A DNA stretch of 64,000 nucleotides from IMG/VR virus record IMGVR_UViG_3300032053_000007; one strand, given 5' to 3'. The stretch is from a virus. Its lineage: Duplodnaviria > Heunggongvirae > Uroviricota > Caudoviricetes. A program made the translations under genes and the position numbers. The notes under the pieces were generated by a model. It was not told where the DNA came from. It did not search any database and worked only from the letters and a program-made list of their open reading frames with translations. Positions 8,615 to 14,923 of this stretch are shown piece after piece. Positions within the stretch are counted from its first letter, which is position 1; every line of letters starts with the position of its first letter.

Positions 8615-8689
8615 GCAAGAGTGGTGTTAGTGGTAGCATATGGGCTTGCCAAGTCTAAGGCGTGGGTCCGATTCCCGCCTCTTGCACCA
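8615..8689 (+). tRNA. tRNA-Gly(GCC)
   Basis: Loop TT-GCC-AA, CCA. Confidence 0.92.
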
Positions 8690-8694
8690 ATAAT

Positions 8695-8770
8695 GCGGGT
8701 GTGGTGTTTAATGGTAACATACGGGTCTTCCAAACCTAAGTTTCGGGTCCGATTCCCGACATCCGCACCA
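8695..8770 (+). tRNA. tRNA-Gly(UCC)
   Basis: Loop CT-TCC-AA, CCA. Confidence 0.92.
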
Positions 8771-8775
8771 GTAAC

Positions 8776-8851
8776 GGGCATGTAGCATAGTCTGGTCCAA
8801 TGCGCCGCCCTTATAAGACGGAGAACACAGGTTCAAATCCTGTCTTGCCCA
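8776..8851 (+). tRNA. tRNA-Ile(UAU)
   Basis: GGGC start, loop CT-TAT-AA, A73. Confidence 0.88.
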
Positions 8852-8854
8852 CTC

Positions 8855-8928
8855 GCACCTATAGCATAACAAGGTTAGTGCGCTGGACCCTTAATCCAGA
8901 CATTCGGGTTCAAATCCCGATAGGTGCA
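8855..8928 (+). tRNA. tRNA-Lys(CUU), C33
   Basis: CTGGA/TCCAG stem, loop CC-CTT-AA. Confidence 0.87.
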
Positions 8929-8933
8929 CTCGC

Positions 8934-9007
8934 GGACCATTAGCATAGCAAGGTTAGTGCAGGGGACCTTTAATCCCCGTACACGGGTTCAAATCCCGTA
9001 TGGTCCT
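8934..9007 (+). tRNA. tRNA-Lys(UUU), C33
   Basis: GGGGA/TCCCC stem, loop CC-TTT-AA. Confidence 0.87.
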
Positions 9008-9012
9008 TTCGT

Positions 9013-9081
9013 GACTTGGGAGCTACGGTAGCAAGGTGGTCTGTGAAGCCACTTCAGACGGTTCAACTCCGTCCCCAAGTC
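9013..9081 (+). tRNA. tRNA-His(GUG) with encoded G-1
   Basis: G-1:C73, loop CT-GTG-AA, short D arm. Confidence 0.85.
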
Positions 9082-9084
9082 CTC

Positions 9085-9157
9085 GCCGATTTAGAACAAC
9101 GGGAGTTCGCCCGACTGAAAATCGGGAATGACAGAGGTTCAATTCCTCTAGTCGGCA
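9085..9157 (+). tRNA. tRNA-Phe(GAA)
   Basis: Loop CT-GAA-AA, full cloverleaf. Confidence 0.92.
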
Positions 9158-9160
9158 TCT

Positions 9161-9232
9161 GCCGCTCTAGCATAATGGTAGTGTACCGCCCTGTTAAGGC
9201 GGAAGGTGTAGGTCCGATTCCTACGGGCGGCG
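9161..9232 (+). tRNA. tRNA-Asn(GUU)
   Basis: Loop CT-GTT-AA, G73. Confidence 0.92.
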
Positions 9233-9233
9233 C

Positions 9234-9310
9234 GGAGATATAGTTTAACAGATTAGAATGCCCGCCTTCGAAGCGGTAAGATGAGAGTGCAACTCTCTCT
9301 ATCTCCACCA
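9234..9310 (+). tRNA. tRNA-Arg(UCG)
   Basis: Loop CT-TCG-AA, CCA. Confidence 0.9.
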
Positions 9311-9315
9311 AATAT

Positions 9316-9390
9316 GGGGTGTTCAGTTAATAGGAAGGCTCTGGTCTCCAAAACCAGATACAGAGGTTCGAATCCTCTACTACCCCACCA
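9316..9390 (+). tRNA. tRNA-Trp(CCA)
   Basis: Loop CT-CCA-AA, CCA end; extra nucleotide in acceptor stem. Confidence 0.87.
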
Positions 9391-9391
9391 C

Positions 9392-9466
9392 GGTCCATTA
9401 GTGTATCAGAGAGCATATGACTCTTACAAAGTCATGGGCATGGTGCGACTCCATGATGGACCACCA
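9392..9466 (+). tRNA. tRNA-Val(UAC)
   Basis: Loop CT-TAC-AA, CCA. Confidence 0.92.
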
Positions 9467-9470
9467 ATAT

Positions 9471-9546
9471 GGGGATTTGGTGTAACTTGGAAGCATCGGT
9501 GGCTTGGAACCATCAGGTGAGGGTTCAAATCCTTCTATCCCCACCA
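9471..9546 (+). tRNA. tRNA-Pro(UGG)
   Basis: Loop CT-TGG-AA, CCA. Confidence 0.9.
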
Positions 9547-9551
9547 ATCGC

Positions 9552-9627
9552 CCCTCTGTCGTCTAACAGACTAGGACCTTCGGCTGTAAACCGAATGATT
9601 CCTGTGCAACTCAGGACAGGGGGACCA
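9552..9627 (+). tRNA. tRNA-Tyr(GUA)
   Basis: Archaeal-type C1:G72, short variable loop, loop CT-GTA-AA, CCA. Confidence 0.92.
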
Positions 9628-9633
9628 ATCAAT

Positions 9634-9708
9634 GGATGCGTAGTGTAGCGGTCAACACACCAGCCTGTCACGTTGGAAGCGCGGGTTCGAATCCCGCCGT
9701 ATCCGCCA
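9634..9708 (+). tRNA. tRNA-Asp(GUC)
   Basis: Loop CT-GTC-AC, G73-CCA. Confidence 0.93.
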
Positions 9709-9751
9709 TAACCTTTATATAGCCGTTTGACATTAATATATTGGGATTAAA

Positions 9752-10363
9752 ATGGCAACTGATATGTGAATCCGAAAAGAGAATTCTACTATTTTGATTA
9801 CGTTAAGTGTTGCCAAAGGTTCTAATAATATTCCTGTAGTCAAACAGCTTAGACGAGAATGTAACACAGCTTCTAATATCAAAGATAATAATACTCGCAA
9901 AAAGGTCTTGAAAGCATTAAACAAACTAATAGTCGAAGTTTCACAAACTCTTGTTGAAGACGGCTATCTAATGTTTGCCGCTTATGATGGTGTCTGAACG
10001 ATTAGACCGCCTTTGCCAGTTACCAGAAACTTCTACGACTGTGGCAAGCGGTTTGAAATTGAGTATTTGAGAAGCCTCTACTCTAATAACCCAAAAATTG
10101 GTATAATTAATCTATCAACTAAAGAGGCTATTATCTCTATCCGAGAAGGTGAATTTGAAGCTGTAAAGTTAAGATTGACTTCTGGAATAGGCGGGCAACA
10201 CAAGAAAGGCGGCTCAAGTTCTGGAAGATTCTATAGAAAACGAGAAGAAGAAATTAACTTTTTCTTTAGAAAAGTCCATAATCGTTCCAGAGATTTCCAA
10301 GTTAACCGATGGGAAATTAGGGGAGACAAAGATATGGTGAAAAGGTATTCTTCATTTGATTAA
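9752..10363 (+). CDS. aRF1/eRF1-like release factor homolog (N and partial M domains) interrupted by two in-frame TGA; readthrough gene or pseudogene
   Basis: One frame from ATG 9752 with TGA at 9767-9769 and 9995-9997; TASNIKD, PP.PV..YDCGKRF (YxCxxxF), HKKGGSS at the GGQ position. Confidence 0.85.
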
Positions 10364-10410
10364 ACCAAAAGGTTTATATAGAGGTATTGACATATATTAA
10401 GGCTACCTAT

Positions 10411-10566
10411 GCGGGCGTAGGGAATCAGAAAACCCAGAGAACGAAAAGTCTGGATGGCTTAAATCTGGATGGCTCAAATCCAAGTCTGGATGGCTAAGAT
10501 TCATTCCCGATAGAGCAAACCCCTTGCTTAGTTGCTGTGGGAGTGCAAATCTCCCCGCCCGTACCA
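10411..10566 (+). tRNA. tRNA-Leu precursor with three tandem anticodon modules (UAA, CAA, AAG)
   Basis: GCGGGCG/CGCCCGT-A-CCA, D arm GGG/CCC, long variable arm, T arm; TCTGGATGGCT x3, each followed by a Leu anticodon. Confidence 0.7.
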
Positions 10567-10579
10567 TTAACTAAAATAA

Positions 10580-10653
10580 TGCGGGATAAGATAACGACAG
10601 TCAGTTGGACTCATAATCCAACAGCGACAGTTTAACTCTGTCTCCCGCAACCA
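10580..10653 (+). tRNA. tRNA-Met(CAU) (elongator/initiator/Ile2 not resolved)
   Basis: TTGGA/TCCAA stem, loop CT-CAT-AA, CCA; atypical T loop TTTAACT. Confidence 0.75.
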
Positions 10654-10793
10654 AAAGATTTATATAGTTGTTTTGTATTATATTTGTGGTAAGTGATTGA
10701 CATGATATTCGAAACTCTTCCTAATTGTCACGACTTGGGTATCAGTAGTCAGTCCACTTGTCAGTCGTCAGCCTAAATTTTTTATCCGTTTGT

Positions 10794-10881
10794 GGCAGGG
10801 TGGCAGAATCAGGTATTGCACCCGTCCTGAAAACGGTGTTCCCTTATGGGAATAGGGGTTCAAATCCTCTCCCTGTCGCCA
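10794..10881 (+). tRNA. tRNA-Ser(UGA), C33
   Basis: Long variable arm, G73-CCA, loop CC-TGA-AA. Confidence 0.88.
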
Positions 10882-10886
10882 TTGAT

Positions 10887-10975
10887 GGTAGGTTGGCTGA
10901 GTGGTTTAAGGTACTGGTTTGCTAAACCAGCGTTCCCATGTGGAACCGAGAGTTCGAATCTCTCACCTACCGCCA
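10887..10975 (+). tRNA. tRNA-Ser(GCU)
   Basis: Long variable arm, loop TT-GCT-AA, G73-CCA. Confidence 0.93.
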
Positions 10976-10985
10976 TTAACTTTGC

Positions 10986-11060
10986 GCGAGTATGCCGAAG
11001 TCTGGTTAACGGGGCGGTCCGCAAAACCGTTATTCGGCGGTTCAAATCCGCCTACTCGCT
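10986..11060 (+). tRNA. tRNA-Cys(GCA), C33
   Basis: U73, loop CC-GCA-AA. Confidence 0.87.
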
Positions 11061-11064
11061 CTTT

Positions 11065-12457: not shown

Positions 12458-14923
12458 TTATGGTTCATTCGTACAAAAAGTGTCTAATATGCAAACGCCC
12501 AGAATTTCTTTGTCCCAATCTATCCCTAATGGCTCAAGTATCTGGATGAAAGTATTTTTAAATGACTCTATGTATTTTGTTACATTAATATCGTCTGGCT
12601 TGGCTAATTGTGTAGGCTTTACCCCTACCTTATCATTCGTTTTGACAAAGGAAATATCAGACCCTTCACCTATATCGTACCCAGCTTGTCGAAGTTGTTT
12701 AGCCGCTTTAATGTGTTGCGGGTCGCCTTCATAATCGTCAATGTCCCTAGAAGCTGTAACGTGAAAAGCCAAGTTTTCCATATTGTCAAAATTACGAGTT
12801 TTTAGTTTGGTATAGGTAATCTTTACTAATTTCAAGATAGATTTCTTTGTAATTTGAATATCTGCCTCAGTATAAACTTGAGCCAGTAGTTTCTTTGTTT
12901 CCTCAAATGGGGTCTTGATTATTTGCGGCGTGTGTTTTTTCTTTCCTGTTAAACCCTTAACGTCAACGGTTCCATCTTTCAAAACACCCAAATAATTCTT
13001 CTTGCGACCACTCAAACAGACATATCTATACTCTTTATCCAATTCAAAATCAATGTCGAATTGAGTTTTCGCCCAAATTAGCAGTTGGTCTAACACTTCG
13101 CTCTGCGGGTCTTTAAAGAAAACTGAATCTGTATCGCCAGCTATGACGTTTAACCCTAGTTCCTGAGCATGTTTTATGGTTTGAGTGATTATCCATCGTC
13201 CGATTCCAGTTACATATTCAGGCATAGGCGGACAATATAGGACAAATTTTTCGTCACCAAATACTCCATATGAGGCATTACAGATAACTTTTATACTCTG
13301 TTCTGATACAGAATACCACGGTTTTAATGGATTGTTCTTATCCTTTGCCATCTTTTTATACCATTTTACACGCAAATCTTTCAAAGTTCCTATTAATTGC
13401 GATTCTATTGCTCTGTTTTTGAGGCAAATATGATGTTTCATGTCTGCAAATGTGTTTCCTTTACACATATCGTGTGGACAATTGACAGTAGCATATCCAA
13501 GATTCCAATTCTTGATTATTGATGGATATAGACTTGCGAAGTCGCCAACTGCAACGTTAAAATGGTATCCAGCTACAGGATTTACAACAATTGCGCCCTT
13601 ATACTTCTTGCCTTTGATTAGAGCGGTTGTTATTGTCTTTCCCTTCATAGCAACGATGTCTTCGGAGCGCGGAATTATTGTGTTTCGTTTACTATGCTCA
13701 TAATATATGAAACTTCGAATCCATTGAGAGATAGGTTTGCGACTTACTAACTCAATTGGCAAATAGCTTAGTCGAGCTAAGACAAGAATTAAGTTCATTA
13801 CTACGTTATCGCTATATGTCGTTAACTTTATTGTAAGATTTGCATCATTTAAACAGTAAGTAAGAAGTTCCTCATAGGTCATATCGCCTACCCACTCATG
13901 TATTCCCTTTATTTTACCTTCCTTGATTAGTGCTTTCGAAACTTCATCGAGAGTGACGTTTTTATACTTCTGTTGGAATGCATAATTCTGCATTGACTTA
14001 ATTGAGAAGAACTTGTAAAGGTCTATATGTATAGCATCTTTCCAGTAAGCAATTTTCTCTTTGACATTATGCGTTATCGGAATATCTTTTATTGGAATCC
14101 CAAGTCGAATTGCTCGGTTCATTAAATAGGGAAGGTCGAAATCATCGCCGTTAAAAGTGATAATGAAAGGATATTGACTACCAAATTTGAATACCGCTTC
14201 CAAAAGTTCTGCTTCGTCCGAGAACCAATCAATAGCATCTGCTTCTGGACAGGTGAAGTCTTTGTCTTCCTGAATTAATACAAAGGCATGTTTTTCGCCA
14301 GTATTGGAAACCATACAAACACATATTACTGGCAAATTAGCACTAGAAGGACTTGGTATTTTATTTCCTTCATTGAGAATTTCGGCATCGAGAGATACAC
14401 GTTTGAATTCTGGTGCTGGATATTCAAGAAGTTTAGCCAGTTGTTCACAGATAGCTTTATTATAAGTCTCTGGTTTGACTAATTCCGTTAGTTCTTTAAC
14501 TCTTATTTCCGCTTCTTTATCCATATTGAAAAGAAGAGTTCCTCTTTCTCGAATATAAGGCATACCCATTTTGATGTCATTATCGTATATGTAACGCATA
14601 GAAAATCTGATATGATTCTCCCAAACCTCTATATTTTGGTTTTCCCAAGCGTCAACTTTTCTGTTGAAGATTTTAATTACTTCTGGACCTTTAACCGTGA
14701 CTTTCCAAACTTTAACCTGTTCATCATGGAGCGCGTCATATCGCTCAACTTGTTCTTGTTTGATAATTCCTTCAAAGTTTTGTTTCTCTCGCGCGTAAAA
14801 ATAATGTTTGAACACGCTATCATAATAATACTCAATTCTGCCCGTATCTGTATTATACAGTTTGAGAACTATACAAGCTAGTGAGTTGTCATAATCAGCG
14901 GAAACGATGTAGAGCATTTGCAT
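12458..14923 (-). CDS. polB: Family B DNA polymerase with proofreading exonuclease
   Basis: LDAE, FNGDDFDLPYL, YCLND, DFASLYPSII, KVICNASYG, GDTDS, KKNY. Confidence 0.96.
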   Translation of the reverse strand: MQMLYIVSADYDNSLACIVLKLYNTDTGRIEYYYDSVFKHYFYAREKQNFEGIIKQEQVERYDALHDEQVKVWKVTVKGPEVIKIFNRKVDAWENQNIEVWENHIRFSMRYIYDNDIKMGMPYIRERGTLLFNMDKEAEIRVKELTELVKPETYNKAICEQLAKLLEYPAPEFKRVSLDAEILNEGNKIPSPSSANLPVICVCMVSNTGEKHAFVLIQEDKDFTCPEADAIDWFSDEAELLEAVFKFGSQYPFIITFNGDDFDLPYLMNRAIRLGIPIKDIPITHNVKEKIAYWKDAIHIDLYKFFSIKSMQNYAFQQKYKNVTLDEVSKALIKEGKIKGIHEWVGDMTYEELLTYCLNDANLTIKLTTYSDNVVMNLILVLARLSYLPIELVSRKPISQWIRSFIYYEHSKRNTIIPRSEDIVAMKGKTITTALIKGKKYKGAIVVNPVAGYHFNVAVGDFASLYPSIIKNWNLGYATVNCPHDMCKGNTFADMKHHICLKNRAIESQLIGTLKDLRVKWYKKMAKDKNNPLKPWYSVSEQSIKVICNASYGVFGDEKFVLYCPPMPEYVTGIGRWIITQTIKHAQELGLNVIAGDTDSVFFKDPQSEVLDQLLIWAKTQFDIDFELDKEYRYVCLSGRKKNYLGVLKDGTVDVKGLTGKKKHTPQIIKTPFEETKKLLAQVYTEADIQITKKSILKLVKITYTKLKTRNFDNMENLAFHVTASRDIDDYEGDPQHIKAAKQLRQAGYDIGEGSDISFVKTNDKVGVKPTQLAKPDDINVTKYIESFKNTFIQILEPLGIDWDKEILGVCILDTFCTNEP

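Follow-up and report, generated by a model that had tools for sequence, protein, structure and literature searches.

A tRNA-Leu gene with its anticodon loop present in several tandem copies lies at positions 10411-10566 of the window, by which we mean the whole 64,000-nucleotide stretch of viral DNA analysed here. The observation is confirmed: a conserved gene of this kind, proposed earlier from the letters of this DNA (the original prediction), recurs in nine lineages with compensatory changes in its stems. From its sequence and that of its relatives, we consider it very probable that the gene is real and functional only after splicing. On balance we also favour the reading that this separately promoted class II tRNA-Leu gene would yield several isoacceptors through a choice among its anticodon modules. 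The parts of the gene are listed in Table 1.

Table 1. The tRNA-Leu gene and its promoter in the window. Downward arrows mark predicted cuts or junctions; exon, intron and tRNA position assignments follow the proposed splicing.
Feature	Position	Strand	Description
BRE/TATA-like promoter AAAGGTTTATATA	10368..10381	+	Putative, assigned from sequence; about 30 nt upstream of the tRNA-Leu 5′ end
5′ exon	10411..10439	+	tRNA positions 1-29: acceptor 5′ strand, D arm GGG/CCC, A26, GAG (27-29)
CCAG and 5′ bulge AGA	10434..10440	+	5′ strand of the intron 1 central helix; predicted cut after G10439
Leader, start of intron 1	10440..10449	+	Differs between lineages; partner is module 1 or the spacer preceding module 3
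Module 1	10450..10463	+	CTGG, AT↓G bulge, predicted mini-exon GGCTTAA 10456-10462 (positions 30-36), anticodon UAA
Module 2	10465..10478	+	CTGG, AT↓G bulge, predicted mini-exon GGCTCAA 10471-10477, anticodon CAA
Module 3	10486..10499	+	CTGG, AT↓G bulge, GGCT-AA↓G
Module 3, two readings			Mini-exon with anticodon AAG (10492-10498), or 3′ acceptor AA↓G donating G10498 as position 36
Module 3 flank ATTCA	10499..10503	+	3′ strand of the outer helix of the putative inter-module BHB
GAGC (10513-10516) and 3′ bulge AAA	10513..10519	+	3′ strand of the intron 2 central helix; predicted cut after A10518
3′ exon	10519..10566	+	Positions 37-76: A37, C38, CCCTT 10521-10525 (positions 39-43)
3′ exon, remainder			Variable arm 10526-10538, T arm 10539-10555, acceptor 3′ strand 10556-10562, A73, CCA

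The window comes from a tailed archaeal virus. Among its products are a family B DNA polymerase (12458-14923, minus strand) and a ribonucleotide reductase, along with terminase-like and portal-like proteins. A dense tRNA array spans 8072-11061. With default settings ARAGORN finds 22 tRNAs in the window and Rfam finds 19, none of them for Leu, in agreement with the earlier claim that no other Leu-type tRNA is encoded here; 10411-10566 is the sole Leu-type gene in a tRNA set for 20 amino acids (64-kb window; loci L002 and L004). This set has separate U34 and C34 genes for Glu and for Lys, and its remaining 4-fold codon boxes are decoded by U34 tRNAs. Since the Gln gene at 8072-8191 holds a textbook BHB intron, the array relies on a splicing endonuclease. 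Archaeal BRE/TATA-like motifs stand upstream of the window's transcription units, and the motif found ahead of the Leu gene recurs before further units of the island, near 9712, 10656 and 11093. Among Leu codons the virus uses CTT, TTG and TTA, those cognate to the three triplets of the gene, most often (28, 20 and 19%), an abundance expected of any A+T-rich genome that weighs little for the use of particular cassettes.

Three copies of TCTGGATGGCT, starting at 10449, 10464 and 10485 and followed by TAA-A, CAA-A and AAG-A, can be read directly from the DNA, as first described. Searching with this pattern at no more than one mismatch gave four matches in the window where 0.23 were expected, a count reached in 0 of 100 shuffles. 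The tRNA body around the repeats has an acceptor stem of 7 bp (GCGGGCG/CGCCCGT), a D stem of 3 bp with a class II-like D loop, and a T arm (GGGAG/CTCCC), together with A73 and an encoded CCA. At 10411-10566 RF00005, the tRNA model of Rfam, gives no match, either at its gathering threshold or at E≤10, as would be expected when 72 nt of intervening sequence interrupt a gene. That sequence consists of the repeats, and no group I intron family was matched in the window by Rfam. ARAGORN run with relaxed settings places a gene at exactly 10411-10566 and labels it Phe(aaa) with a 76-nt intron. We rejected a Phe(aaa) tRNA with an intron at position 38, as the leader triplet that would serve as its anticodon varies between lineages (AAA, TAA, TAT, CAT).

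We gathered relatives of the gene through homologs of the DNA polymerase B (54-91% identity) and through one pattern scan of metagenomes. The three-module layout is kept in nine diverged metagenomic lineages, which we call A to I: A comprises the window, L024 (identical), L048, L098/L004 and L002; B, L007/L008; C, L011/L018/L037; D, L026/L074; E, L089; F, L021 (partial); G, L023; H, L163/L188; and I, L165. In each lineage a single promoter precedes the gene, whose parts lie side by side in a stretch of 156 nt. Scans of IMG/VR with four patterns and of GTDB representative genomes returned chance matches only, such as coding repeats, and a scan of IMG/VR with the DNA polymerase B protein returned zero matches. 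The IMG/VR pattern scan likewise found no intron-less version of the mature anticodon arm.

The acceptor stems of these genes are almost wholly different between lineages (GCGGGCG, GCGGGTG, GGATGCG, GCCTCTG, GCTAGTG, GCGAGCG), and the T stems have diverged likewise. In an alignment of 11 sequences all 220 cells of the cloverleaf pair (220/220), with both sides changed in 10 of the 20 pairs; this level of pairing and covariation was matched in 0 of 500 shuffles, and slid controls came nowhere near it. The acceptor and D stems are paired in each of the 11 aligned sequences, with compensatory changes, and A73 is invariant across lineages. The variable region, 12-14 nt long (13 nt in the window), is short for a class II tRNA and has a covarying stem of 2-3 bp (GC/GC, GTC/GAC, GCG/CGC). 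A long variable arm and the discriminator A73 are Leu identity elements for archaeal LeuRS. Because the stems always pair despite near-total divergence, and because A73 never changes, the comparison indicates that the gene is under selection as a tRNA and is not a relic.

The modules themselves are more constant than the sequence around them. Across 13 sequences, with 39 module instances, CTGG, GGCT and the triplets are invariant, except that T and C at position 34 are swapped in H and I; what varies is the pair of bulge bases (AT, AA, TT, TC) and the stretch following the cassette. Module order is TAA, CAA, AAG in most lineages versus CAA, TAA, AAG in H and I, with the triplet set kept. No non-Leu triplet was seen in any module of the lineages examined, so that conservation in relatives, a check named in the original prediction, came out in its favour with the same three modules in nine lineages. 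In lineage B, module 3 is damaged and has lost U33. The introns diverge freely between lineages, and the leaders are unrelated (AACGAAAAGT, ACTTTAAGG, ACTTAAGGG and others) around fixed modules. Leaders, spacers and flanks shift their pairing register while the modules stay fixed, a pattern contrary to that expected of modules serving as pairing partners alone.

The anticodon stem of the tRNA is divided over the gene. GAG at 10437-10439, continued by the GG of a module, pairs perfectly with CCCTT at 10521-10525, and this stem is paired in all 11 aligned sequences. The 5′ exon of lineage E has GAA at its end and the 3′ strand of the stem reads CCTTC, a difference made up of one compensatory change and the replacement of a G.U pair by G-C; lineage G has the stem GAG+GG/CCCTC. 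The covariation of the anticodon stem rests on these two lineages. The stem is present only once both introns are removed and, because GAG, GG and CCCTT lie in separate parts of the gene, the mature tRNA needs two excisions.

The first of these excisions is predicted at position 29/30. As had been proposed for any repeat of the window, CCAG (10434-10437) can pair with CTGG and leave 3-nt bulges, AGA on one side and NNG on the other, and this central helix is 4/4 in 39 of 39 module instances. The rule for BHB cutting (a 4-bp helix, 3-nt bulges and a cut after the second bulge base; PMC4090602), applied to CCAG/CTGG, predicts the junction GAG↓GG, which is exactly what the anticodon stem requires. 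The joining of G10439 to GG suggested earlier has thus held up well: it gives the 5′ strand GAGGG demanded by the comparative data, and the pairing of this strand covaries in lineage E. The outer helix of this motif is 1 bp everywhere, and the inner helix ranges from 0 to 6 bp, with 4-6 bp in C, D, E and I and 1-2 bp in the window's own lineage. Since helices of at least 2 bp do not flank it on both sides, the putative intron 1 motif is of the relaxed HBh′ type, not the strict hBHBh′ type. Its formation requires the D stem and a local hairpin to open. In the minimum-free-energy fold of the window's gene, AAGUC of the leader pairs with GGCUU of module 1 and CCAG pairs with module 2. At equilibrium CCAG pairs mostly with module 1 or 2, and module 3 takes a share of at most 0.6% of the ensemble, although such shares are equilibrium estimates only and carry little weight.

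The second intron is common to all modules and in the window would end at 10518/10519, where GCUN of a module pairs with GAGC and AAA bulges lie on both sides. Its 3′ end is conserved in relatives as (G/A)AG(C/T)-AAA-CCCCTT-G, or as TGAG-AAA-CCCTT-G in D, E and G. In these last three lineages it has the form of a canonical 37/38 intron: the central helix CUNA/UGAG is 4/4, the outer helix is the 5-bp anticodon stem, and both bulges, each AAA in the case of CAA, would be cut after the second base. Folding the intermediate of lineage D recovers this canonical motif. In A, B, C, H and I a one-base shift of the motif (GCUN with (G/A)AG(C/U)) goes with one extra C, and the predicted cut falls at 36/37. 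The two registers covary with the length of the C-run, and a 7-nt loop results from both. Module position 37 is G or even T, a pyrimidine, only where base 37 derives from the 3′ exon; its variability in A, B, C, H and I follows from the register shift, which puts base 37 in that exon. U34 and C34 modules form the intron 2 helix at 4/4 in every lineage, save for CAA in H, and GCTC of module 2 pairs 4/4 with GAGC. For the A34 module the helix is 3/4, with a mismatch in every lineage.

When the two introns are removed in silico, the products have the cloverleaf of a class II tRNA-Leu. That of the window is 84 nt long, has no stem mismatch and carries a 13-nt variable arm. Default ARAGORN labels every in-silico product as tRNA-Leu in every lineage, whether the anticodon is taa, caa, aag, tag or cag.

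When the gene was scanned for strict BHB motifs, the top-ranking one came as a surprise: the GGCU of module 1 or 2 pairs with the GGCU of module 3. This helix consists of two G-C and two G.U pairs, and its bulges are N34-N35↓A and A-A↓G. Between modules 2 and 3 the outer helix has 5 bp, the central helix is 4/4 and the inner helix has 5 bp, enclosing a putative intron of 21 nt (10477-10497); between modules 1 and 3 the values are 5 bp, 4/4 and 8 bp, and the intron would be 36 nt (10462-10497). Splicing at these places is predicted to join C10475-A10476 or U10460-A10461 to G10498 and to give CAG or UAG. Strict inter-module BHB motifs that would give UAG and CAG are new here.

The GGCU/GGCU helix is 4/4 in every lineage except B, and its flanking helices are strict in lineages A and E (outer 5-6 bp, inner 5-8 bp). 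In the window the flank ATTCA pairs with TGGAT of module 1 or 2, or else forms a hairpin with module 3's own TGGAT. Lineages D, E and G have ATTCAG as the corresponding flank; H and I have TTCCAG. In lineage D, where the three module hexamers are CTGGAT, CTGGAT and CTGGTC, ATTCAG pairs 6/6 with modules 1 and 2 versus 4/6 with module 3; in H and I, with CTGGAA, CTGGAA and CTGGAT, TTCCAG pairs 6/6 with modules 1 and 2 versus 5/6 with module 3. The outer helix of the inter-module motif appears to track the hexamers of modules 1 and 2, in what would be two or three independent events. Local hairpins are favoured over the inter-module BHB in lineage C. The third module is also a place of insertion. 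Extra introns lie exactly after GGCTAA (35↓36) in G (415 nt, with an ORF) and in I (107 nt), both with good BHBs that restore GGCTAA↓G, and lineage F has an insertion at the same 35↓36 place in module 3. The ORF within the 415-nt intron of lineage G had no Pfam match at E≤0.1.

Given these motifs, the triplet AAG more probably serves as a splice acceptor (AA↓G) than as an anticodon with A34. The original prediction had counted AAG among the Leu anticodons; the triplet is indeed present, and its use with A34 is doubtful in view of the mismatch in the intron 2 helix and the AA↓G BHB. We know of no use of A34 tRNAs in archaea. Reading AAG as an acceptor explains both the oddity of A34 and its constant mismatch in the intron 2 helix, and also why no U34 tRNA reads CUN although U34 is otherwise used in this set; with U34 in the other 4-fold boxes, UAG fits better than AAG. 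An acceptor-only reading is nevertheless incomplete, because the AA of AAG never varies, whereas bulge bases should vary freely, and direct use of AAG as an anticodon cassette is possible. Two further candidates were rejected. The idea that a TadA-like viral deaminase makes I34 from AAG fails on the protein encoded at 3141-3743, which matches dCMP deaminases (ComEB model, PDB 2hvv, 1vq2) and not TadA. As the mature anticodon arm, the local hairpin of module 3 (GATGG/TCATT) would suit no lineage but A and B; it does not work in C, D and E, and the variable region would then be 33 nt long.

The analysis shows the conservation, the covariation, the geometry of the motifs and the canonical form of the products in silico; cleavage itself, its order and the proportions of the products are inferred. 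We propose a gene in which three tandem anticodon modules stand between a 5′ exon (positions 1-29) and a 3′ exon (37-76) common to all of them. All three modules present one kind of acceptor, CUGG followed by two free bases and ↓GG, and one kind of donor, GCUN pairing with GAGC. A host EndA, presumably of the lenient alpha2beta2 type, would remove two introns together with a ligase, one at the non-canonical position 29/30 and one at 36/37 (at the canonical 37/38 position in three lineages). One mini-exon of 7-8 nt, GGCU-NNN(-A), would be left between the shared exons to give a canonical 84-nt tRNA-Leu. The module kept would be whichever one offers the CUGG that pairs with the single CCAG of the 5′ exon, and UAA and CAA would arise directly from modules 1 and 2. 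Cuts at N34N35↓A and AA↓G in the inter-module BHB would put G in place of base 36, yielding UAG and CAG. The three kinds of BHB are mutually exclusive folds, and ordered refolding is therefore required. We put forward tentatively that such splicing is combinatorial, and that four or five Leu isoacceptors (UAA, CAA, UAG, CAG and perhaps AAG) come from one 156-nt gene. With similar reserve, we suggest that the route would combine a choice among three tandem acceptors with an inter-repeat motif that exchanges the third anticodon base.

The best-surviving alternative, which we regard as rather improbable, is a tRNA-Leu gene with three introns and a single product, the other modules being guide helices within introns that serve folding or the presentation of splice sites. 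The product would come from the middle module, as CAA (or CAG after the splice between modules 2 and 3) in A-G and as UAA or UAG in H-I. The folding of the precursor is in keeping with this: the minimum-free-energy folds of A, B, D and E pair CCAG with module 2 and the leader with module 1, GCUC/GAGC is the only perfect intron 2 helix in lineages A-C, and tRNAs with up to three introns are known (PMC4033280). The pattern of conservation points the other way. Modules 1 and 3 are invariant at exactly the bases that would be exonic while their pairing partners drift, whereas guide helices should covary on both sides; the middle anticodon would differ between lineages (CAA versus UAA), and yet the triplet set is kept. 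In lineage H, moreover, the intron 2 partner AAGC is perfect for UAA and mismatched for CAA.

Far less probable is the splicing scheme as first written, with UAA, CAA and AAG as the anticodons, TCATT(C) at 10501-10506 as the 3′ strand of the anticodon stem and, for UAA, a 37/38 intron bounded by the helix CTTA (10458-61)/TAAG (10495-98) with the junction 10463↓10501. Its 5′ junction is right, CTTA can pair with TAAG in every lineage but B, and the AA of AAG does not vary. The proposed 3′ strand, however, is intronic and unconserved, with ACCAG, TCAGA or TCCAG at that stretch in other lineages, and each product would have a stem mismatch and a 33-nt variable region, whereas the true partner, CCCTT, gives perfect covarying stems in all lineages. 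The constant mismatch of A34 and a viral deaminase that is not of the TadA type also stand against this scheme.

It is equally improbable that the locus is a relic or decoy, either a pseudogene expanded by slippage or an RNA whose exposed Leu anticodon loops would, for instance, titrate an anticodon nuclease. In favour of this, the unspliced gene is rejected by standard tRNA finders, the third module of lineage B is damaged and mobile insertions sit in module 3 of F, G and I. Against it, the stems evolve by compensation, A73 is invariant, promoter and CCA are the gene's own, conservation of the modules extends to viruses sharing only 54% identity in DNA polymerase B, and the triplets occupy loop positions 5-7 of local hairpins, which is not anticodon-loop geometry.

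Much of what the proposed splicing calls for is textbook in Thermoproteota, including non-canonical 29/30 introns, up to three introns per gene, relaxed motifs and lenient alpha2beta2 endonucleases (PMC4090602). The closest likeness in working is to the split and tri-split tRNAs of Caldivirga maquilingensis and Nanoarchaeum equitans (Fujishima et al. 2009; Randau et al. 2005; reviewed in PMC4033280 and PMC4090602). There, too, shared 5′ and 3′ pieces are combined with interchangeable anticodon-bearing pieces to give synonymous tRNAs, and joining goes by a BHB or relaxed BHB cut by the splicing endonuclease at sites that include 29/30 and 37/38. Split tRNAs, unlike the viral gene, are separate genes whose transcripts are joined in trans, whereas the 156 nt of the viral gene stand behind one promoter and the choice would be made in cis. 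The exchangeable piece of the viral gene is only 7-8 nt, and its base-swapping inter-module BHB is without a counterpart in split tRNAs. By this comparison the gene would be tri-split-like in its working, yet it is not a member of the split tRNA family.

The tRNA genes with two or three introns (Marck and Grosjean 2003, reviewed in PMC4090602) are alike in the combination of 29/30 and 37/38 positions, in their relaxed hBH/HBh′ motifs and in processing that depends on alpha2beta2 or epsilon2 splicing endonucleases (PMC4090602). They differ in giving one product per gene and in having no further copies of acceptor or anticodon in their introns; the viral gene is set apart by its viral location, by the triplication of its acceptor and by the conservation of that triplication. 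Our literature searches for alternative splicing of archaeal or viral pre-tRNAs found no description of it in the papers covered. Should this gene yield several tRNAs, it would be, as far as we know, the first case of a tRNA alternatively spliced in cis.

If the proposal is true, the archaeal BHB system can be used combinatorially, down to a single anticodon base. The combinatorial reading would further mean that splicing in effect edits the anticodon and that all six Leu codons are decoded from one compact gene. The hypothesis is directly testable with one in-vitro transcript and recombinant endonuclease. The gene also bears on the debate whether split and intron-containing tRNAs are relics or late inventions, as its modular layout is clearly derived, maintained and viral. 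The gene escapes standard tRNA finders altogether; counts of tRNAs in archaeal viruses, and in some archaea, may therefore be too low, and a Leu decoder that appears to be missing may hide in a gene of this kind.

DNA of the window occurs in sediment, freshwater-sediment and peat metagenomes, and queries of 401 nt and 166 nt yielded no RNA run. The nearest named cellular relatives of the viral DNA polymerase B belong to the Bathyarchaeia, at about 46% identity, a likeness that is only a hint of a possible host. In lineage I, a Ser-like gene of L165 gave ambiguous anticodon calls when a single intron was removed in silico.

Among the relatives, L023 and L021 carry insertions within module 3, the last of the three tandem anticodon modules, of their tRNA-Leu genes (see the table for all features). 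The intron of L023, a related metagenome contig of lineage G, has a bulge-helix-bulge (BHB) motif with an outer helix of 6 bp, a central helix of 3/4 and an inner helix of 9 bp. It holds a 135-codon ORF (plus-strand 160-565) that is broken by one in-frame TAA and has no Pfam match at E<=0.1; this ORF is probably a decayed passenger of the homing-endonuclease type. In L021, a partial contig of lineage F, the inserted DNA includes a TATA-like promoter, and a Cys-rich ORF (MKKICEQCKKEF...) begins in it; the 3′ exon of this Leu gene is not seen because the contig stops within the insertion.

The Ser-like gene of L165, a lineage I contig, has an acceptor stem identical to that of the window tRNA-Ser(GCU). 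The gene contains an intervening sequence of ~135 nt and several Ser-type anticodon-like heptamers (GCT, TGA), and removal of a single intron led to ambiguous calls. We suggest that this may be a further multi-cassette gene.

In the window's own array, the tRNA-Gln(UUG) intron has a BHB with a 6-bp outer helix, a CCTT/AGGG central helix and a 3-bp inner helix. The gene was not found by default ARAGORN or by Rfam in a search of the window, and ARAGORN called the intron-removed sequence as tRNA-Gln.

Features of the window and of related contigs
Feature	Location	Strand	Remarks
BHB intron, 415 nt	L023, Leu gene module 3, at 35/36	-	
A+T-rich DNA interrupting Leu gene module 3	L021, about 960-1133	+	after GGCTAA
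Class II Ser-like gene, 222 nt	L165, 17365-17586 (reverse-complement positions 4905-5126)	-	
tRNA-Gln(UUG), C33	window 8072-8191	+	43-nt textbook BHB intron at 37/38
tRNA-Thr(UGU), C33	window 8307-8378	+	relaxed ARAGORN settings only
aRF1/eRF1-like ORF	window 9752-10363	+	within tRNA array; own TATA box
CDA-fold deaminase	window 3141-3743	+	adjoins ribonucleotide reductase
Peptidyl-tRNA hydrolase PTH2	L002 8621-8932; L005 3675-3986; L007 8891-9232		precomputed Pfam

The aRF1/eRF1-like ORF encodes a TASNIK-type motif, the Pfam domain eRF1_2 and, on translation, an intact GGQ motif (SGIGGQHKKGG). It lacks the C-terminal domain, and two TGA codons lie in frame, one after MATDM and the other after AAYDGV. 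The CDA-fold deaminase matches dCMP deaminases best (ComEB model, PDB 2hvv) and not tRNA adenosine deaminase. PTH2, encoded near the family B DNA polymerase in three related contigs, is an additional translation-related gene in the family of the window virus.
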